From Escherichia coli (GTDB lineage Bacteria > Pseudomonadota > Gammaproteobacteria > Enterobacterales > Enterobacteriaceae), in the NCBI RefSeq assembly GCF_003018115.1, contig NZ_CP027457.1: a stretch of DNA of 64,000 nt, one strand, 5' to 3'. Positions 1-11,535 of this stretch are shown piece after piece (the stretch's first letter is position 1; each line of letters opens with the position of its first letter). The translations under genes were made by a program, and so were the position numbers. The notes under the pieces are model-generated. The model was not told the origin of the DNA, did not search any database, and saw nothing but the letters and a program-made list of their open reading frames with translations.

Positions 1-3000
1 ATATCTTCCGGAGACAGATACAGTTTCGGAACCATGACTGTCTGTCCGTTGATGGTGACTGACTCCCACCACAGCAGGCTTCTGGTCAGTTGTGCAACCT
101 GCCCGGCGGTCAGCGACACTCCAAAGGTCAGTCCGAGCGCTTTCTGTTGCGCTGCCGCGCTGTCCATCAGGTATTTCATCTGCGCCAGGTCAGAGCCTGT
201 GCCGTTAATATAACGTGAGCCCGTCTGGTTCAGTATGACGTTACTGACATACCGGGTATCAAAAGCCGCATCCCCCAGAAAGCGGTAATCTTTTTCCGGT
301 TTCAGGCCAAGACGGTCAAGAATGTACGACGAGCCCAGAAACTGTTTTTCATCGGTATATGCCGGGTCTGTTTCTCGTGGTGCCTGTCCGGGTTGCATCC
401 TGAGCAGGTCATACAGTCCGGCAAACAGACTGCTGTCCACCTTTCCGAGACCATCCAGTTTCGGGTTCACCGTAATCAGATACGGACTGTCCGGGTCCGT
501 GGACGGGACAAAATAACCATTGTTACCGGATGGCAGGGGATAGTTGCTTACACTTGCCCCGGACAGCGACAGCGCACCCGGGATATCCTTCAGCGTATCC
601 GGCAGCGCGTCATTCCATACAGGGCCGGTTATCCCGGTACCGCTTTCATTCAGCAGGGCTTCACCGCTCACCCCCTGACTGACCGTCGGTGGTGTCAGGG
701 AGTTCAGCGAAGGCACCGTTATCGTGTTACCTGCACCACCTGCCCGGGGCATGACAGTGGTATTACCGGTGTCAGTGGCAAAGCTGGCAGACACATCACC
801 GGCAGCGCTGATAACCGCACGGTACTGACCTGCCGGAGAGGTGCCACTGGCTTCTGTCGCATCCGGCGAGACCTGGCGATAGACCTTATACCATGGCTCA
901 GTAAACCACGCTTTGGGGAGTGAGCCGGAGGCAAGCCGCCAGACCGTTTCCTTTCCGGTGGTCCCCTCCTGCCAGCCCTGATTGTTCAGTGTGTCGCCAC
1001 TCAGGGTCATACTGCCACCGGCGAGAAGAAACGATGCCTCATTATCCAGTCGTCCTGCACGGATATGCATATCAGCGCCGCCGGATATCCGGGCAGCATG
1101 ACCGGAGGCACTGACTGTCACCGTTTCCGTATCGCCCGTACGGATACGGTATTCATCAGGTACCGTGGCACCCTCCCCCCAGTACACGGCCAGATATTCC
1201 ACACCATCATGCCGGACAACACCCCACCAACGGTTATTTTCCGGAACCGGTGAAATCACCCCGCGACTGCTTCCAGGAATGACCTCATGGCTGGCCGAAA
1301 TGGCATCCCAGGAATTCAGCAGATGCGCCGTATTCATGGTGATATCGCCACGTGTGGTTTCAATATTACCGGAACGGTTAATGATTTCGCTGTTTGCCGT
1401 ACCGCTGCTGTCCTTCTGTACCCACAGACTGTTGCCGGCCAGGATATCACCATGCTGGTTATGCAGACGGTCTGTAAACAGCTTCAGGTTATTCCCCGCA
1501 TAAATCAGCGCACTGTTCAGCAGGGTACCGGCCACATTCATTGTCAGACTGCCTGCCGTGCCGGTAAAACCACTGATGGTGATATCACTCCGGCTGTTCA
1601 GACTCACATCGCCACCGGCCTGAAGTGAACCCGGTGCGTTAAGGAAAAGACGCTGTGCGCTGAAAACACTGTTGCCTTTACCGGCAGTCAGCGTTCCATT
1701 GTTGGTGAATGCCTCTCCGGCACCGAGCACCATGGCATCACCCAGCATGACACCGCCGTTGGTGATGGCATTTTGCGACGTGACGGAAAGGGTTTTCCCT
1801 GCGGCCAGGGTACCGTAATTCGTGAGGGCAGCAATCAGTTTCAGTGTGACATCACCGGTGGCCACCACCTGGCCCTGACCACTGAAGTCCTGAGCGTCAA
1901 GCAGCAGGTTGCCTGCACTGTACAGCCGCCCTGTACCATTTTGCAGCAGTGAACTGCCCTTGACGCCAAGCCCGGAGGTTCCCAGCAGGGTACCGCTGTT
2001 GCTGAATGTGTGGTAATTCACCAGCAGATCCGCACCCTGAAGCGTACCGATATTATTCAGCGTGGTTCCTTTAACGTCGGCACTGCCGGTGGCAAGTACG
2101 CGTCCGCCGTTGACAGTATTCACCACATCCAGCAGCAGGGTGGCAGCCTGTACCAGTCCGCTGCCGGTGTTCGCCAGCACCTGCGCCGTCAGCGTGAGGT
2201 TACTGCCGGAGAAGATTTTGCCGTCGTTCTGCAGACGGTCAGTGGCGTTCAGGGAAACCCCGCCACCACCCTGTATCGTGCCCTGGTTACTCAGGGTCGC
2301 AGTACTGACATTCAGTGCATTCCGGCTCATCAGAACACCACCGGAACGGTTGTTCACGCCACCGGAGGCGGCCAGCGTCAGCGTTTCGCCCTGCAGATGC
2401 CCGCCGTTTGTGAGTTGTCCTGCCGTGATGGTGGTGGCATTTCCCTGTAATTGCCCGTCGTTTGTGACACTGTCTGCCTTCAGCGTCAGCACACCTGCAC
2501 TGAGCAGTTTTCCGCTCGCGTGATTGTTCAGCGTCTGATTCACCGTGAGCGTGAGAGCATCCACACCGGTGATGTCACCCGCACTGGTCAGTGAGTTCGC
2601 CTTCAGAGTCAGATTTTTTGCAATCCATTGTCCGCTGTTGCTTAAATTCAGTGCACTGAGCGCCATTTCACCGTTCGAGGTGACTTTGCTGCCTGCTGTG
2701 CTGACAAGCTCACCCGTCAGACGTGCAGTCAGGCTGTCAGCCGCCTGGATCGCCCCGCTGTTTGCCAGACTGTCTGCGGTGATCAGCACCCGTTTGCCCT
2801 GCCAGTGTCCGGAACTGGTAATACTGCCTGCGGTGATTGTCAGATCGCCGCTGGTCAGCAATGAACCTCCGTTATTCATCAGCGCAGGTTGAGGGGATAC
2901 CATACGAGCAGCAAGCGTCAGCGCGGCAATCCCGGTGAGCGAGCCACTGTTGGTGACACTGTTCTGGCGAATCGTGACATGGTCACCCTGGACAGTGCCG

Positions 3001-5501
3001 CTGTTATCCAGTGAGTTTCCATCAAGGGAGAGCGTGCCGGCCGAAAGCAGACTGCCCCGGTTGTCCGTGGTGGCTGCTTTCAGCGTGGTGTCACCCTGGC
3101 TCATGATATCGCCGGTACTGGTCAACTGACCGGTTGCCGAAGCAGTAAGGTTACCGGTTGCCAGTACGGAACCACTGTTCGCCCATCTGTCCGCCTGCAC
3201 GGTGAGATTCTGTCCCTGCGTGGTCCCTGCGGTATTCAGTGTTTTACCCCGGAGGGAGAGGTCGCCCGCCGTCAGCCAGCGTCCGTTACGGCCCTGTGAG
3301 AGGGTGTCGCCTGCAAGCGCCAGTGCACCTGCGCCCTGCAACAGGCCATCGCCATCCAGCGTGGTCGCCCTGACGTTCAGCGTGTCAGCGGTGATTTTTC
3401 CCGGATTGCTGAGGGAGGCAGTGTTTAACGTTAAACCGTTATCACCGGTGATAAGCCCGCTGTTGCGGATGTCCGGTATATCCAGCGTCAGGTCTGCAGC
3501 ACTGTACAGCGTGCCGTTCTGCTGATTATCAAGCCTCTGTGTGTTAACGGTGAGTGAGGCCTCCCCCTGCAACAGACCGCTGTTGGTCAGGGTCTGTGAC
3601 TGTGTATTCAGGGCGGAAGCAACAAGTACGCCGCTGCTGGTCAGTTCCGGCGCAATGAGGCTGAGCGACGGGGCACTGCTTTTCCCGCTGTGGGTGAGCT
3701 TTTCACTGGCGTTCACCACCATGGTCTGTTGTGCTGCCTGCGTACCTGCAAGACGTGCATCTCTGGCGTTGATGCTGAGATTTTTGCCGCTCTGAAGTTG
3801 TGCGCCCGCTGCGGTACTCAGTTTGTCTGCCTGAACCCGGAGGGTGTCACCGGCACTGGTTTCCCCGTCCAGCGCCACGGTTGTCACATTCAGCGTCATC
3901 GCAGCATCGCTGTGGGTGACTGATTTTTTACCGGAGCTCAGCGTCTGCGCACTGACTGTCAGCCCTTTGCCGCCGGACAGCACACCGTTCTGTGTCACAT
4001 CCTGCGCCTTCAGCACCAGTACATCATCGCTCACCAGCGAACCTGTACTGGTCAGTTTCCCACTGGCTGTGATATCCACTTTGCCCTTCGCGCCAGTGCG
4101 GCCGCTCTGGGTAAAGTCGCGGGTATTCACGGTCAGGCGACCGCCACTGAGCAGGGAGCCACTGTTGCTGAGCGTTGTACTGCCGAGCGTCAGGGAAGCC
4201 CCCTGAACAGCACCACTGTTATTCAGCGTGCCGGCATCGAGTCCCGCATGACCTTTCGCCAGCAATATTCCGTCCTGTGTCAGCGTGGTGGCGCTGGCCG
4301 TGAGATTCTGCCCGGCGGTTATCTGTCCCTGTGTTGTCAACGTGTCACTGGCGACAGTCACAATATTGCGGGCCGCGTTAATCTGGCTGGCGGTATCCTG
4401 TGTGATGTTTTTCGCGGCAAGCGTTACATCCCGGCCGGCAGTCAGTTTTTCATTCTGTTGAGTGATTCTGCCGCCGGCGGTCAGGCTGAGGTCCTTGTCG
4501 CTGTTAAGCGTTCCATTGCTGAGAACGATATCGCTCCGGCTGCTGACGCTCAGGTTACCTCCCGCTTTATGGTCGCCGGTTAAGGTGACGCCCTGACCTT
4601 TTGCAGTGACGGCCCCCGTGGCGAGACTGTTGTTGACAGTCAGTCTGCCGCTGGCATCCAGGGTGATATCGCCATCGCGGGCATAAAGGTTACCAAGATT
4701 AACCCCGACACCACTTTCAGTGGAGGTCAGATGAATACGCCTGGCGTACATTCCACCGAGCGCGCCGGTATCAACGGCAACTTTCGGCACATCACCTTCG
4801 CCCTTCAGTGCACTGACACGACCATCTGCAGTTATCCGGTTAGCGCCTGCAGTGACAGTTAAATCCTTCGCATGAAGCGCGGCATTCACTTCCGTTGCAC
4901 GGGCAATAATGGATACGGCATCGCTCCGGGTGCCGTCCAGGCCCGCGCCATTGATGGTGATACTGCCTTCAGTCACCTCCAGCGCCTGCAGGCTGCCGTC
5001 GGCATTCATCACAGGTCTGCCCGTGGTGAGCGTCGCGTGCGGCGTGTTGATAAAACCACAGCCGTCACAGGTGATACCATACGGGTTGGCAACAATCACA
5101 TTCGCCGCTTTGCCGGCCACTTCCGTATAGCCCTGCAGCAGTGAACGGTTACCGCCGGTCACTTCGTTGATGATACCCTTCGCTTCCCCGCCCGCTTTCA
5201 GGTTCGGGTTATTCTGTATCAGTCCACCAAGCTGCGTCGGATTAAGCTTACCGGTGGCATTATTGAGAATCAGCCCTTCCTTCCCGACGTTGTAATCCGT
5301 AAACCGGTTATGCGAAATCCCGGCCCCGTTCGGCGTGGCAATGTTCACGACCGGCACACCATTTGCCGCTTTATCCATTCCGGCCCCGTTTTGTGGGGTG
5401 ATGACGGCCCCCACAGCCGGTAACAACGGCTGCCCGGCGATAATCGTACTGATAAGGTAACTCAGCAGGCGGTAAGTGAAGCGAACGGGAGGCTGATGCA
5501 T
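1..5501 (-). CDS. cdiA: CdiA-like two-partner-secretion exoprotein (contact-dependent inhibition toxin / filamentous hemagglutinin family), N-terminal ~1833 codons only; C-terminal toxin region lies beyond window start
   Basis: Manual minus-strand translation from ATG at 5501..5499 gives [105 protein letters not shown], a TPS secretion domain. The ORF track shows no stop-bounded minus-strand fragments across 1..5500 apart from one 71-aa off-frame ORF, so the frame appears open to the window edge. Plus-strand ORFs here are low-complexity antisense products. Sits directly downstream of cdiB. Confidence 0.8.
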
Positions 5502-5513
5502 GGTAATAATCCC

Positions 5514-7280
5514 TTAAAACGCGACGGCAACGCGCCAGTAAACCGTGAGATGGTCAGGGGCAAGCCAGTCCGGGTAGACCAGAGGCAGTCCGGCGGTGAA
5601 CGAACCGGAAACATGACCACTGGTGGTGCTGAGCCCGGCAGCAGCACCCCACAGCGTGCCGGACGAGTACGGGTCATCGCTGTCAGAGTGCAGCCAGCCG
5701 CCGTCCAGTGCAGCCACTGCACGGACAGTTCCCACATATGGCAGGGAGAACAGAGACCAGGACAGCTCATTTCGCAGATAACCGCCGTTATTACCGGAGA
5801 TATACTGCTCCTTAAAGCCACGCACTGAACTCTCACCCCCGAGGCTCAGTTGTTCCACACCATGAAGACGGTCCGGTGACCACTGGGCATAAGCGCTGGT
5901 CAGCCACCACACCCTGTCCGTGACGGGGCGCTGAAAACTGGCACTCACCGACCATTTCCGGAACTGATTTACGGGCAGGTCTCCCCTTTTCCCGTGGTCG
6001 CTTTCTGCGCCGAACCAGGGCATCCCCCGTGTGAATACCGGATTCAGTGTTCCGACCCCCCCCAGAAACTTGTGTGTGTGATTCAGCCCGACAGAAAATG
6101 AAGTGAGTTTACGGCTGCTGCCCTGAAGCAGAACATCATCCAGATAATTGTGAATAATGCGGTGCTGCAGACCTCCGGTCAGTGCTGTCTTCATGTCCCC
6201 GTTACGGAACAGAACATGCGACAGTCCCAGCCGGTGAGTCTGCAGGTCTCCCGTGGAACGCCACCGCCAGCCCCGGTTATCAATGGTGCTGAGGTAGTCA
6301 CTCCATGAATACGTGTAATCCACCAGGGTATAGCCATACGGCAGACTGACACCGGCGGCAAAATTCCTCGCATCATGTGACACCGAAAAGTCACTGCTCC
6401 GTCCCCCGCTGACAAACCAGTTGTCAGCCAGCCCCAGCGGATTATTAAAGGAAAGGACACCATTTAACTGCCCCGTACCGGTATTCTTCTGTCCGCTGTT
6501 GTCGAAGCCCGCGCTCCCTGTGACAGGCCATTCCGGCGATGCCGTCAGTGTCACCACCGACCATCCCTCACGGTCACCGGGCGATATTTCAATCTGTACC
6601 GGCTCCGTACGCAGACGGTTAATCTGCTCCATCCCCTGCTCAATATCCCGCAGGTTCAGAACCGCCCCCTCCATTCCCGGGAAAACCATCTTCAGGGTGC
6701 GGGCAGGAAGGTCAGCGCCTTCCGCCCGGATTTGCTGCAGCCTGCCTTCCATGACCGTTATGTGCAGTACGCCCCCTGAAAGGTCCTGCTCTGTCAGAAA
6801 GGCCCGGCTGGTGATATATCCCCGACGTATATAGCCGTCCGTCACAGCATCCGTGACCGTGGTCAGCCCCGTGATATTCAGACACTGATTCACCCACGGT
6901 GCCACCAGTCTGTCGGTTTCTGCAGACGTCAGTCGGGTGGCCCCACTGACAACAATGCGTGACACCGTAAAGCAGGGACCTTCAGTACCGGCAGACGTTT
7001 CCCGAGACGGTACAACAGTCAGCGGCGTACTGCGCTCCAGCGCATCACGCTGACGCTGGTTTTCATCCAGCAACTGCTGCTGTTGCTGCTGAATTGCACT
7101 GCGGTCACCCGGAGACAGCATGGCTGCCGGAGACGAAAACGAAAGAATACAAAGGCAGGGGAGGAGGGAAAAATAGCGTGCCACCGGAGAGAAAGTGCGG
7201 AGCTTAAATGCGCACTGACCGGAAACCATACCAGGCAACAAATTTCTGTTCGCCAGTAAGTTATCCTGCCGGTGCTGCAT
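5514..7280 (-). CDS. cdiB: CdiB / TpsB-family outer-membrane transporter (ShlB/FhaC-like) for CdiA
   Basis: 588-aa ORF ending in aromatic ...YWRVAVAF typical of outer-membrane beta-barrels; stop 13 nt upstream of the cdiA start; classic tpsB-tpsA order. Confidence 0.8.
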   Translation of the reverse strand: MQHRQDNLLANRNLLPGMVSGQCAFKLRTFSPVARYFSLLPCLCILSFSSPAAMLSPGDRSAIQQQQQQLLDENQRQRDALERSTPLTVVPSRETSAGTEGPCFTVSRIVVSGATRLTSAETDRLVAPWVNQCLNITGLTTVTDAVTDGYIRRGYITSRAFLTEQDLSGGVLHITVMEGRLQQIRAEGADLPARTLKMVFPGMEGAVLNLRDIEQGMEQINRLRTEPVQIEISPGDREGWSVVTLTASPEWPVTGSAGFDNSGQKNTGTGQLNGVLSFNNPLGLADNWFVSGGRSSDFSVSHDARNFAAGVSLPYGYTLVDYTYSWSDYLSTIDNRGWRWRSTGDLQTHRLGLSHVLFRNGDMKTALTGGLQHRIIHNYLDDVLLQGSSRKLTSFSVGLNHTHKFLGGVGTLNPVFTRGMPWFGAESDHGKRGDLPVNQFRKWSVSASFQRPVTDRVWWLTSAYAQWSPDRLHGVEQLSLGGESSVRGFKEQYISGNNGGYLRNELSWSLFSLPYVGTVRAVAALDGGWLHSDSDDPYSSGTLWGAAAGLSTTSGHVSGSFTAGLPLVYPDWLAPDHLTVYWRVAVAF

Positions 7281-7454
7281 ATTCTCCTCGTGGGGTATCC
7301 AGTGTAAATTAACGTAAGTGGAATGTCAGTGCTGAAATTTACACCAGATAAAAAACATACAGAAACAATCCTGTTATGTAAAATCCGGAAAAAATGTCAG
7401 AAATGTGATCAGAGTTGTGTTTTACGGAGGGGAGTGCACTGCGCACGGACTAAT

Positions 7455-7590
7455 CGGAACCTATCGGCTGAGCGATATCGATCCGGAAGCGTATCTGCCT
7501 CATATACTGAGAGTTTTGCCGGAATGGCCTTCCAACCTGTTGATGAACTACCTCCATGGAACGTAGTGCTCACCAATAAATAAGCGTCAT
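7455..7590 (+). mobile_element. IS66-family remnant (degenerate 3' end of tnpC)
   Basis: DNA aligns with 13784..13918 (gatccggaagcgtatctgc...ccggaatggccttccaacc...ccatggaacgtag...caccaataaataagcgtca); translation ends ...PPWNVVLTNK like the IS66 TnpC C-terminus but with frame disruptions. Confidence 0.55.
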
Positions 7591-7624
7591 GCCTAACTTA
7601 AAGTAAATAGAATAGCAGATATGC

Positions 7625-8203
7625 TTAATCCTTTTTGTTGAGTGTCACTGGACCATAGACCATAAAAACACAAGTTGAACCAGATACTCCCCTATAACCT
7701 CCCTGTCCATCGCCGAGATAACAGGCAAGAGCAGTAAATTCCCAGGCATCATCCATAGACGCAGCAATTTTGCGTGTGGTTAGTGTTTCTTTGCCATATT
7801 GCTCACCAAAGTCGTGCACGCGCCGGGCATATTCTCCAAGTGACTCGCTGACTGACGGATGGTCCCACCCCCATAACCAGGTGCTGTCTTCAGTATCGTA
7901 AGTGCCAACCACTTGAACAGGTGCTGTGACCATGATCTCTTTTTCATCATTGGTGAAGGTGATTGTACCTGTATTAAGATCAACATCCCACGCAGCAGTA
8001 TCAAGTCCCCACATTTCTATAGCGGCTTGTGTGAGTAACTGCATTTCGTTATTCGCTCGTGCAATTGTGAGATCTGGCTCTGAAAGAATTGCTGTGTTAG
8101 CACTGGAATCTTTATTCTTTCTGCCAAAAAGCTTCTTGAATAAATTAGTCATTCCTACTCTCCCGTTTTCTGCAAACACTTTGGCTGAATTATTAACGTT
8201 CAA
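7625..8203 (-). CDS. hypothetical protein, 192 aa, no recognised family
   Basis: Intact ORF downstream of the ykgG-like gene on the same strand; no motif recognised. Confidence 0.4.
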   Translation of the reverse strand: MNVNNSAKVFAENGRVGMTNLFKKLFGRKNKDSSANTAILSEPDLTIARANNEMQLLTQAAIEMWGLDTAAWDVDLNTGTITFTNDEKEIMVTAPVQVVGTYDTEDSTWLWGWDHPSVSESLGEYARRVHDFGEQYGKETLTTRKIAASMDDAWEFTALACYLGDGQGGYRGVSGSTCVFMVYGPVTLNKKD

Positions 8204-8641
8204 ATTTTGTCAGACATGTGTATACCCTAACCTGACATCAGGCCTGATAATGAAAAACTATCAGAATAAAATCGTCATGAGTATTTATTGAGACAAGTAA
8301 TTAAAGGTCATAGATTCATTTATGACATATTCAGGCGTGATAGCGGCATCGTGGTAGTGACTCAGTCCTTTAAACCCGCAATATAAAACGAAAAAACAGA
8401 CCGTTTTTCAGAAGATTAGCGCATTTATTGAGAAGTTTAAAGGCGTGGGAGGGCATCTTTAGTTACAAGCACCCAGACTAACCCTTGCCACAATAAACAG
8501 GCATGAACACTGACTGCTATTGTAAGGCATTAACGGAGTCCGTATTGACGCTTACGCTCAAGTCGCGACTAATACAACTAAATGAATGATTAACAGCTCA
8601 GCTAAACGGAGCTGTTAATCGTATATACATACTAAAATGTA

Positions 8642-9337
8642 TTAGCAGTCATCAATAATCAAGTAAGTTGCATGTACTGGTCCATGCACACCAACAACTT
8701 TGATCAGTTCTATATCTGCAGTAGAACTTGGGCCTCCAATCAGATTGATACAGGAAGGCAGTCGTTGTCCTTCCTGAGCCATTTCATGAAGTTTTTGCGC
8801 AAGCTGAGCCACTCGGGGGAGAATAGTGCTTTTGCGTAAAACAAATAATGATGCTTCAGGCAAAAGGCTTACTGAGCGCCCACGTTCTGGTGCGGAGAAT
8901 AAGACAATGCCTCCTGATTCTGTCAGCCCATACTCAGCGAAAACGACACCAGTTTTTGCCTTTTCAGCAAGATGGATATTTTCATCGCCCTTCTCCGGAT
9001 CCCACAGAGCAGCGTCCATTTCTTTTTGTAGCAATGGCGTAATCCCTGTATCGACCAGTCGTTGATCGTTGCTGATAATGACTGGCCCGGAACCGAACTT
9101 CCAACAGATGTCTAAGGCTGTTGATGGTGCGTTCTCAGGCGACACCAGAACACACTCGGCAAGCATCACTTCCGAGGCAAATTTAATAAACGCCTCACAG
9201 CGTTGGTCTGATGTCAACTCTGTTAAACGTGTCGTAGCCAGCGTATTTACAGGCTCCGGCATTGCTTCGGGAATATGTCTTACTGGTCTGCCAAGCTTTC
9301 TGGCGATCGCAACGAGAAATTCCTCTCTGTTTTCCAT
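8642..9337 (-). CDS. ykgG: LutC/YkgG-family lactate utilization protein
   Basis: 231-aa ORF; third gene of a lutA-lutB-lutC-type cluster, sequence consistent with YkgG/LutC. Confidence 0.7.
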   Translation of the reverse strand: MENREEFLVAIARKLGRPVRHIPEAMPEPVNTLATTRLTELTSDQRCEAFIKFASEVMLAECVLVSPENAPSTALDICWKFGSGPVIISNDQRLVDTGITPLLQKEMDAALWDPEKGDENIHLAEKAKTGVVFAEYGLTESGGIVLFSAPERGRSVSLLPEASLFVLRKSTILPRVAQLAQKLHEMAQEGQRLPSCINLIGGPSSTADIELIKVVGVHGPVHATYLIIDDC

Positions 9338-9340
9338 AAA

Positions 9341-10756
9341 TTACCCCTCCTTCTTATGTCGCTTGAACCAACTACGGAAGCTTTCTCCATCAGGTGATGG
9401 CAGGTCTCTGGCTTCAGTCCATTCTTTTATCGCTCCAACACTAATCGGCGTTTTTCCTTTCCTGATGAACAGACGGGCTGTTTTGGCCCCAGCAACCATA
9501 CCTACCTTCCACAACGCCGGATGGCTGTTTATGTAATTGAATGCTCTGGTTATACGGCGTTCCGTTAATGGTGTGATTTCAGACTCTGCCATAACCTGGC
9601 GATGTTTTTGTATTAGCGTTGCCAGAGGTATTTTTACAGGACATACCCCATTGCAGGCAGTGCACAATGAGCAGGCATAGGGTAAATCCTTAAAGTCTTC
9701 ATATCCACCAAGCAATGGGGAAATAACCGCGCCGATTGGCCCCGGGTAGATTGAACCATAACCATGCCCACCAATCTGACGATAAGCCGGGCAGGTATTA
9801 ATGCAGGCACCGCAGCGGATACATCGCAATACATCGCTGAATTCTGAGCCGAGAATCTCTGAACGCCCATTGTCAACAATAACGAGATGGAACTCTTCCG
9901 GACCATCAACATGTCCTTCTTCTCTGGGGCCTGTAAGCCAGGTGTTATAACCTGTCAGTCTCGCCCCGACAGCACTCCTTGCAAGCATGGTAATCAGAAC
10001 ATCCACCTCCTGGAATGTCGGAGCAATACGCTCCATACCCATAACAGCAATATGTGTTTTAGGTAATGTGGTGCACATCCGTGCGTTGCCTTCGTTTGTA
10101 ACAAGGCAGACTGACCCTGTTTCTGCAACGGCAAAGTTACACCCCGTTACGCCAACTTCAGCACTCAGAAAATCTTGTCTGATTTTCTCACGGATGAACA
10201 ATGTCATTGCTTCTGGAGTTTCAGGCCCGTCATACCCCAGATGTTCATGTAAAACTCTGCGGATTTGATGGCGATCTTTATGTATTGCCGGCACAACCAC
10301 ATGCGATGGTGGCTCATGTGCTAGCTGAAGAATATATTCCCCAAGGTCCGTTTCAATCACGGGTATCCCGGCTTTCTGAAGAACGGCATTCATGCCAATT
10401 TCCTCAGTCACCATTGATTTGGATTTAACAACCTTCCTGGCGTTTTTTTCTTTCGCCACCTTCAGTATGTAACTGGTTGCATCCTCTCTGGTACGGGCAA
10501 AATATACATGCCCGCCATTCGCAGTAACCTTTTCGGACAATTGATACAAATAAGCATCAAGATTTTCCAGAACATGCCGACGAATCTGTTCAGCTCGTGA
10601 ACGCCATTCCTCCCAGTGTCCCAGTTCATCAACCATTTTCTGTCGATTAGTCCCTATGCGCTCCTGTGCGTTAGCCACAGCTTTTCGCATGATCGGGTCC
10701 TGAATCTGAATACGGATACGCTCTTTAAACCTGATATCACTTGTTTTCAAAGACAT
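9341..10756 (-). CDS. ykgF: LutB/YkgF-family iron-sulfur lactate utilization protein
   Basis: 471-aa ORF with two CxxCxxCxxxCP ferredoxin-type motifs (CIRCGACINTCPAY, CSLCTACNGVCPVKIP). Confidence 0.8.
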   Translation of the reverse strand: MSLKTSDIRFKERIRIQIQDPIMRKAVANAQERIGTNRQKMVDELGHWEEWRSRAEQIRRHVLENLDAYLYQLSEKVTANGGHVYFARTREDATSYILKVAKEKNARKVVKSKSMVTEEIGMNAVLQKAGIPVIETDLGEYILQLAHEPPSHVVVPAIHKDRHQIRRVLHEHLGYDGPETPEAMTLFIREKIRQDFLSAEVGVTGCNFAVAETGSVCLVTNEGNARMCTTLPKTHIAVMGMERIAPTFQEVDVLITMLARSAVGARLTGYNTWLTGPREEGHVDGPEEFHLVIVDNGRSEILGSEFSDVLRCIRCGACINTCPAYRQIGGHGYGSIYPGPIGAVISPLLGGYEDFKDLPYACSLCTACNGVCPVKIPLATLIQKHRQVMAESEITPLTERRITRAFNYINSHPALWKVGMVAGAKTARLFIRKGKTPISVGAIKEWTEARDLPSPDGESFRSWFKRHKKEG

Positions 10757-10766
10757 TCTGTTTACC

Positions 10767-11486
10767 TCATCTGTGCATCAGGACTTCAGCAATATGCATC
10801 ACTTTTACAGGATGCCCTTCACGGTTAAGCCGACCGCCGATGTTTAGCAGGCAACTGGCGTCAGCCCCGATAAGAAAATCAGGTTTAACATCCATAATAT
10901 GCCCGACTTTCTCTTTCACCATTTCACCAGAGATCTCCGCCATTTTTACAGAGAATGTGCCGCCAAACCCGCAGCACGTTTCCTGAGCGTGAAACGGCAG
11001 TAGCTCAAGCCCCTGTACATTCTCAAGTAGCAAAAGCGGCTCTCTGGTTACCCCCAGCTTACGGGAAAGGCTGCAGGAGGGATGGTACACAGCGCGACCA
11101 TTGAGTTTTGCCCCAACATCTGTGATGCCAAGATGATTTACTATAAATGATGTCAAATCATGCAGGCGTTCAGCCACTTTTTCAGCTCGTGCCGCCCACT
11201 CAGGTTCTTCACTGAGATAGCGAGCGTAATTTTTTATCGTGTAAGTGCATGACCCGGCAGGAGATACTACCGGCCAGTCATTCTCTTCCAGCGAAGATAT
11301 GAGATTTTTCATGCCCGGGATGGCATCACGAACATAACCGCCATTTATCGCTGGCTGACCACAACATCCCTGCTTTTCGGGGAAATGGACATTGCAACCC
11401 AATTGCTCCAGTAACAGCACACTCTTTTGTGCCATCCGGGATTTAAACGCATCACCAATGCAGGTGACGAAAAAGTTAACATTCAC
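10767..11486 (-). CDS. ykgE: LutA/YkgE-family Cys-rich (CCG domain) Fe-S oxidoreductase subunit
   Basis: 239-aa ORF with GCCGQP and CCGFGGTF motifs typical of the YkgE/LutA family. Confidence 0.8.
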   Translation of the reverse strand: MNVNFFVTCIGDAFKSRMAQKSVLLLEQLGCNVHFPEKQGCCGQPAINGGYVRDAIPGMKNLISSLEENDWPVVSPAGSCTYTIKNYARYLSEEPEWAARAEKVAERLHDLTSFIVNHLGITDVGAKLNGRAVYHPSCSLSRKLGVTREPLLLLENVQGLELLPFHAQETCCGFGGTFSVKMAEISGEMVKEKVGHIMDVKPDFLIGADASCLLNIGGRLNREGHPVKVMHIAEVLMHR

Positions 11487-11535
11487 AGAAATTTCTCCTG
11501 TTGATTAATATTCCACGTCCTTTTGTTGTTTTTTC

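Follow-up and report, generated by a model that had tools for sequence, protein, structure and literature searches.

Orphan cdiA-CT/cdiI arrays are a known system of toxin and immunity genes, and the Pfam YezG-like family is taken here to be equivalent to DUF600/Imm36. Experiments have validated YezG as an immunity protein that acts on the YeeF DNase (PMC7033585), and DUF600/Imm36 and Imm-NTF2 have both been tied to NucA-type nucleases (PMC3482391). As a hallmark of polymorphic toxin systems, Zhang et al. (2012; PMC3482391) described polyimmunity proteins, in which immunity domains of unrelated families are combined and whose genes as a rule are not close to those of toxins. For DUF6882, the domain family with which the present analysis is concerned, the sole literature mention found was the listing of two adjacent DUF6882 genes in a Fusobacterium island.

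The window, a stretch of 64,000 nucleotides of Escherichia coli contig NZ_CP027457.1, had been described in an earlier note as carrying an intact ORF of 192 codons that lies downstream of a ykgG-like gene, on the strand of the lactate genes and just inside a degenerate IS66 remnant. This description was correct in its outline: the frame is open at exactly 7625-8203 on the minus strand, which also encodes all the lactate genes, the lutC/ykgG-like gene is found at 8642-9337, and the ORF is bracketed by IS66-family 3' remnants (7436-7589 and 13764-13919). The frame of the 192-aa version was confirmed as intact, but its start was not, since the real one is almost certainly the ATG at 8152 (8150-8152), 17 codons downstream of the TTG, which gives a product of 175 aa. 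No Shine-Dalgarno sequence was found ahead of the TTG (8203), and a GGAG stands 7 nt upstream of the ATG; the homologues all start at the Met of this ATG, the TTG extension is missing from every one of them, and a purine-rich GGAG/GGGA is kept at the Shine-Dalgarno position in six orthologous loci. RefSeq annotates a CDS at 7625..8152, WP_000182867.1, of 175 aa, named DUF6882 domain-containing protein. The features of the locus are collected in Table 1.

Table 1. Positions of the DUF6882 gene, its surrounding scars and the neighbouring genes in the window
Feature	Position	Strand	Evidence or remark
cdiB gene, ShlB/POTRA domains	5514-7280	-	adjoins very long cdiA
Mosaic module of 6,257 bp: DUF6882 block, scar and lutC-lutB-lutA-lctP	7331..13587		common to IncI1-type plasmids
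Block of 925 bp: IS66 tip, DUF6882 gene and upstream flank	7434..8358		moves as a unit between two E. coli contexts
3' remnant of IS66-family transposase gene, co-inherited with DUF6882	7436..7589	+	DDE_Tnp_IS66_C, E = 1e-5, below the curated cut-off
DUF6882 CDS, 175 aa plus stop, start almost certainly ATG 8150-8152	7625..8152	-	Pfam, RefSeq, homologue starts, dN/dS, AF2
Codons 1-12, MTNLFKKLFGRK, amphipathic motif followed by disordered linker	8117..8152	-	resemblance to the MinD membrane-targeting sequence
TTG-started in-frame extension of the mechanical ORF, probably 5' untranslated and not coding	8153..8203	-	
Native 5' flank of DUF6882 gene, probable own promoter and leader	8153..8331	-	homology to an Enterobacterales chromosome (L016)
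GGAG Shine-Dalgarno, 7 nt 5' of ATG	8160..8163	-	read from sequence
hsdR fragment of about 95 bp (type I restriction), recombination scar	8360..8455		between DUF6882 block and lutC
lutC, lutB, lutA and lactate permease gene (context only)	8642..13092	-	Pfam and NCBIfam assignments

The dN/dS ratio of the gene against five Enterobacterales orthologues was 0.07-0.23, and this value, together with homologues across phyla, indicates that the ORF is a real gene under purifying selection. Its GC content was 0.449 (GC3 0.386), the window mean being higher (0.499). No consensus sigma-70 site in the 5' flank passed the scan, and the search of the lutC-DUF6882 spacer, which is uninformative, gave neither a consensus promoter on the minus strand nor a terminator. 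The view that the ORF is spurious, or a decaying remnant in island DNA, could draw on its position among pseudogenes and IS debris, on the lack of a detected consensus promoter and on one distant, frameshifted copy (Frischella), but was found extremely improbable given an intact frame that is identical in about 52 E. coli records, the low dN/dS, the conserved start, Shine-Dalgarno sequence and 5' flank, the full-length Pfam match and a confidently predicted fold. A 121-aa plus-strand ORF (7926-8291) runs antisense to the gene and is most likely a spurious shadow, because of the strong purifying selection on the minus-strand frame. Two short palindromes were observed at 8208-8248 in the native 5' flank, ATCAGG/CCTGAT (8237-8248) and TGTCAG...CTGACA (8208-8213 / 8232-8237); they are partly conserved in the L016 flank and could be an operator, although six-base repeats often arise by chance.

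The ORF had also been described as an orphan with no recognisable motif, which the profile searches did not bear out. The protein matched Pfam PF21813 (DUF6882) with E = 1.3e-33 and 116.3 bits, against a gathering cut-off of 23.9, residues 56-182 of the 192-aa ORF being aligned to profile positions 12-139 of 142. The conserved core was present (W55, D58, Q80, WLWGWDHPS at 92-100, W137 and G151-Y153), and its columns were invariant or nearly so in an alignment of 47 sequences, query included. A word-index search returned 377 homologues, with identities of 65-83% in other Enterobacterales, about 68% in Burkholderiales and Xanthomonadales and about 55% in Sphingomonadales, and an exhaustive profile search gave 2,432 family representatives at 50% clustering. 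In a scan of species-representative genomes, members were found in Proteobacteria, Planctomycetota, Deinococcus, Actinomycetota, a cyanobacterium, and Chloroflexota and Bacteroidota MAGs. A lack of conservation in any other genome, named in the earlier note as the sign of a spurious ORF, therefore does not apply. Within E. coli, identical DNA with an intact frame was present in about 52 complete records; about 1% of complete E. coli genomes carry the gene, which was also found on six Escherichia plasmids. As judged from its sequence, nothing sets the window gene apart from the other members of this catalogued but uncharacterised family (length class about 160-190 aa, WLWGWDHPS core). Two side observations concern other members: in Frischella japonica (L050, 6001-6499) the coding sequence is divided between two reading frames, so that this copy is probably a pseudogene, and a single contig of Rosenbergiella collisarenosi (L025 and L032) carries two DUF6882 genes separated by about 57 kb. 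A defence-system or phage origin was rejected, as the gene had no PADLOC or PHROGs match and tblastn against 50,697 phage records gave no match.

Of the two roles proposed earlier, an accessory gene of the mobilised lactate module and an unrelated cargo gene, the genomic comparisons favoured the second. Searches by tblastn for LutA, LutB, LutC and LctP within 6 kb of DUF6882 were negative in all 80 species-representative loci, and no lut genes were seen near DUF6882 in 10 further annotated loci. In E. coli, the gene occurs in two contexts. The first comprises the window and IncI1-type plasmids. Region 7331-13587 is shared at 99.94% identity with plasmid NZ_CP024481.1, on which IS66-family elements, their transposase genes frameshifted, stand on both sides of the module. 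The second comprises about 48 E. coli genomes that have the same block without lut genes. Only the 925-bp block, including 206 bp upstream of the gene, is common to both, and a single SNP (99.9% identity) distinguishes its window/plasmid version from that of a lut-less chromosome (E. coli RM10466, L003). A recombination junction lies at 8358/8359, and directly beyond it is the hsdR fragment (8360-8455); over 400 E. coli records, for the most part plasmids, carry an annotated HsdR gene that matches this fragment with 85-88% identity. On account of this junction and fragment, the spacer between lutC and DUF6882 is regarded as a patchwork of scars. The hsdR fragment is the scar of an earlier plasmid context.

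Further comparison was made with an unrelated, lut-less Enterobacterales chromosome (L016), on which the orthologous gene has pyrBI and nrdDG as neighbours; the 734 bp at window positions 7598-8331 match this locus with 84.9% identity. The homology extends from 179 nt 5' of the CDS to 27 nt 3' of it and, because it covers the 5' flank, indicates that the gene came in alone, on a minimal fragment that included its own upstream region. Taken together, these comparisons demonstrate the acquisition and assembly history of the block, the steps of which are as follows. E. coli gained a single-gene fragment of about 0.73 kb from another Enterobacterales chromosome; this fragment became attached to an IS66 3' stump, giving the 925-bp block; the block later joined the lactate cluster through the junction and the hsdR scar; and the resulting mosaic circulates on IncI1-type plasmids and, in this chromosome, adjoins the cdiBA locus.

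Co-transcription of DUF6882 with lutC, as an accessory of the lutABC-lctP module, would be in line with the shared strand, the position downstream of lutC, the lack of a terminator-like site found between the two genes and the joint occurrence of lut genes and DUF6882 on at least six Escherichia plasmids and one chromosome. This explanation is nevertheless very improbable in view of the 80 and 10 other loci without lut genes nearby, a 489-nt spacer that holds both the junction and the hsdR fragment, a conserved 5' flank of its own derived from a lut-less chromosome, and the about 48 E. coli genomes with the identical block and no lut; a functional link to lut is effectively refuted. With high confidence, DUF6882 is a real gene that travels as a passenger, independent of lut. 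As a catalogued family member and a passenger, it is not to be used to extend the lactate module.

Some further observations were made on the surroundings of the module. The IS66 remnant at 7436-7589 is labelled by RefSeq as a pseudogene of a "transposase domain-containing protein". This stump and that at 13764-13919 are 86% identical and form co-oriented direct repeats; as regards the idea of an IS66 composite transposon, these two 3' stumps are all that the window keeps. When plasmid L002 (16029-18828) was compared with window 13572-13943, an extra IS66-family element of about 2.4 kb was seen in the plasmid, where it separates the right-hand IS66 stump from the lactate permease end of the module, a difference that may reflect plasmid gain or chromosome loss. 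The closest chromosomal record is that of E. coli 2014C-4135 (L001), 99.93% identical to the window over 16.3 kb. lutC is intact (231 aa) in the window (8642-9337) and in the plasmids, and is annotated as frameshifted in L001 (13083-13606), so that the window derives from a close relative of that record and not from the very same sequence.

On its other side, the block adjoins a cdiBA locus (window 1-7280, minus strand), whose cdiA is annotated by RefSeq as a contact-dependent inhibition tRNA-nuclease effector. The DUF6882 gene is co-oriented with cdiB and lies 345 bp from its start (7280), and the family shows links to CDI systems, so that the gene might be considered the cognate cdiI. Such an assignment is highly implausible, because cdiI genes come after cdiA, this gene is found upstream of cdiB and is separated from it by an IS66 stump, and the identical block is present on plasmids and chromosomes without this cdiBA locus; moreover, a different small gene, of the DUF6911 family, directly follows cdiA according to RefSeq, where it takes the cdiI position in the reference strain.

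To survey the neighbourhoods of stand-alone copies, the genes nearest to DUF6882 on either side were assigned to Pfam families in the 80 loci, and the 25 commonest families per side were listed. No toxin domain was present among these listed nearest-neighbour families. The recurrent neighbours were lineage-specific, namely phenylalanine hydroxylase upstream (7) and PrmA downstream (6) in Sphingomonas, where DUF6882 is placed between the phenylalanine hydroxylase gene and prmA, and GNAT (6). A conserved partner gene was sought and rejected: the immediate downstream genes of two Enterobacterales loci were unrelated (E = 0.37), and all-against-all clustering of neighbours gave genus-level synteny only. 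No tandem DUF6882 paralogues occurred in the 80 loci, the copies on Streptomyces plasmids were also solitary, and a TpsB gene was found within 6 kb of DUF6882 in just one of the 80. SUKH/SMI1_KNR4 genes were located 2-3 kb away in two loci, which is suggestive and not significant. In the second E. coli context, the gene is co-oriented at the distal end of a degenerate array made up of a CdiA-like gene, a small ORF, a VENN pre-toxin fragment, an IS3 element and an adhesin fragment. No toxin remnant was recognised in the 206-bp upstream flank of the E. coli gene, which has stops in all three frames. The adhesin fragment of RM10466 (L003, 10800-10952), annotated as an "adhesin" pseudogene, ends in GGWNPKFNADLRHYLAHT and its stop codon abuts the DUF6882 block exactly; it had two short homologues only in a database of 5.8 billion proteins, with no intact E. 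coli copy, and was rejected as a nuclease tail since it showed no similarity to NucA-type toxin tails.

Domain fusions were more informative as to function. Among the top 150 family representatives, 51 were fusions of 240-553 aa with DUF6882 at one end, and the partners recognised by Pfam at E <= 0.001 among these 51 were Imm-NTF2 (4), YezG-like (1), Imm48 (1) and DUF4259 (1). The partner segments clustered into three recurrent modules and singletons. That the modules are diverged second copies of DUF6882 was rejected (hhalign probability <1%), true tandem duplications being restricted to P0121 and P0140. Module N1 (10 members) is N-terminal and gave consistent YezG-like matches on one profile region (1.4e-9 in P0181), and module C1 (12 members) gave weak Imm-NTF2 matches; a C1-type fusion adjoins rpsD and adk. 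The singleton partners of P0168 and P0121 matched Imm-NTF2 at 2.2e-9 and 2.6e-5, respectively, and a word-index search with the C2 partner returned one fragment only.

A motif scan of metagenomes yielded 32 loci with stand-alone N1 genes, none of them with a fused N1 and none adding a new DUF6882 context. An ORF is present upstream of N1 in 30 of these loci; in 17 of the 30, its C-terminal domain shares 40-79% identity with one nuclease tip, and several loci show a 4-nt overlap between the toxin stop and the N1 start. According to Pfam, the upstream ORFs are CdiA-type (TPS, hemagglutinin repeats, DUF637 and PT-VENN) with complete Endonuclea_NS_2 ends. Since it lies directly behind CdiA nucleases in 17 of 30 loci, N1 has the genomic context by which cognate immunity proteins are customarily recognised, which accords with YezG acting as the immunity protein of YeeF and with the ties of DUF600/Imm36 and Imm-NTF2 to NucA-type nucleases. 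In the metagenomic loci L107-L138, CdiA-type Endonuclea_NS_2 toxins are each followed by a YezG-like gene of about 130-145 aa with the motif IWGLTFTLYPDGKF; as these genes are individually below Pfam thresholds, the set seems to be a CdiI family that is under-annotated. Two loci (L102 and L103) have DUF6882 itself in such a position: an Imm45 gene comes first, then an Endonuclea_NS_2 tip that is truncated (profile positions 57-131 of 132, E = 4.9e-19), and the end of this tip shares 8 nt with a gene for an N1-DUF6882 fusion. These loci are an orphan toxin/immunity cassette array.

The structure prediction suggested in the earlier note gave a confident AF2 model (pLDDT 89.6) but no significant fold match to solved structures, and the protein had no sequence match in the PDB. 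DUF6882 is a small cytoplasmic alpha+beta protein without signal peptide or membrane span. Trp, Gly, Ala and Pro account for most of its conserved positions, a few others being polar (Q80, S100 and Y153), and no recognisable set of catalytic residues was present among them. The N-terminus has a subfamily consensus of M-x-GFLKKLFGGK, the E. coli version of which (MTNLFKKLFGRK) forms a helix at residues 4-8 in the AF2 model, followed by a low-confidence linker at 10-20. The membrane-targeting sequence of MinD is KGFLKRLFGG (PMC5471200), which is nearly identical, and the hydrophobic moments are also close (0.40 in DUF6882, 0.45 in MinD); the motif is followed by a flexible linker in DUF6882 and differs in being N-terminal, whereas that of MinD is C-terminal. 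It was found in 72 of 108 close stand-alone homologues and 12 of 149 distant representatives, and is thus restricted mainly to the proteobacterial stand-alone subfamily, in which it may reasonably be taken for a peripheral membrane tether.

Considering these results, the explanation that we prefer is that DUF6882 binds toxins as an immunity-type domain of the polymorphic-toxin systems and that the E. coli copy is an orphan immunity gene, a reading to which we assign a probability of about 50%. It is supported by the fusion of DUF6882 to immunity families, in keeping with the polyimmunity pattern, by the partner N1 being the immunity module of CdiA-CT nucleases, by the fused gene behind the nuclease tip in L102 and L103, by the place of the E. 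coli gene at the far end of the degenerate CdiA array in the lut-less context, and by conserved positions rich in Trp, Gly, Ala and Pro without a catalytic set, as in many Imm families. The case is one of guilt by association, and some of its evidence has limits: in the fusions, N1 alone could account for immunity to the adjacent nuclease, and NTF2-like folds have many roles. The DUF6882 domain itself had no Imm Pfam match and no toxin partner was found for it; the position downstream of a toxin was seen in the fused relative (L102 and L103) and not in the window gene or the stand-alone copies, which had no toxin gene adjoining them among the neighbour families listed for the 80 loci.

A cellular role outside conflict has to be weighed against the immunity reading. 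Here DUF6882 would be a small protein at the membrane that serves in binding or regulation, perhaps in connection with lipids or ligands, the fusions would combine generic binding domains, and the E. coli copy would be a hitch-hiking accessory gene. Many stand-alone copies are indeed single, unusually conserved and in stable housekeeping synteny, and such a role is a possibility to be taken seriously, for the family and for the E. coli copy alike, though the less probable of the two. It leaves unexplained that the recognisable partners are almost all immunity families (Imm-NTF2, YezG-like and Imm48), that N1 is demonstrably an immunity gene of CdiA nuclease toxins and that the fusion occupies the immunity slot behind a toxin tip. 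The patchy spread (about 1% of complete E. coli genomes), in islands and plasmids, likewise points to an accessory gene of the conflict type.

If DUF6882 is an immunity protein, it would bind an incoming toxin domain in the cytoplasm and block it stoichiometrically, a nuclease that arrives through CDI or a comparable system being a plausible candidate for the toxin. In the proteobacterial subfamily, the domain would be tethered by its N-terminal helix, amphipathic and MinD-like, and by the linker that follows, so as to stay at the inner face of the cytoplasmic membrane, where imported toxins arrive. The fullest form of this proposal, in which DUF6882 is a new and structurally novel immunity domain whose stand-alone proteobacterial form, tethered to the membrane, acts as a widely conserved and pre-emptive orphan guard against imported toxins, likeliest CDI-type nucleases, is speculative and on balance doubtful. 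A guard role at the membrane would explain the persistence of a solitary gene far from toxin loci.

What the analysis adds is a functional hypothesis for a family of about 2,400 clusters without an assigned function. The leads are the fusion partners and one cassette context, which point to toxin immunity, a fold without a solved relative, and an N-terminus that resembles a membrane tether. If confirmed, DUF6882 would represent a new immunity family in the polymorphic-toxin repertoire and an example of a conserved immunity gene not linked to a toxin, which bears on resistance to non-kin attack.

When compared with the known systems, the locus resembles LutABC/YkgEFG operons in that DUF6882 is a same-strand neighbour in the window and in six plasmids, and differs from them in that the genes do not co-occur in other sampled genomes and the junction is a scar. 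With regard to YezG/DUF600/Imm36, it is N1, and not DUF6882, that gives YezG-like matches and that, like YezG, directly follows a non-specific nuclease domain; the likeness thus concerns the partner, the hhalign probability between DUF6882 and N1 being <1%. Imm-NTF2 and other NTF2-fold immunity proteins (e.g., Tai3) are likewise counted among the closest known systems. Polyimmunity and orphan immunity proteins offer several points of likeness: DUF6882 is small, alpha+beta and Trp-rich, is fused to immunity domains, with the fused form behind a toxin tip, and is encoded away from toxins, patchily, in islands and plasmids and, in one context, at the end of a degenerate CdiA array. Unlike these proteins, it is absent from the described Imm families, occurs as single copies and not in arrays, is often found in stable core-gene synteny and is unusually well conserved.
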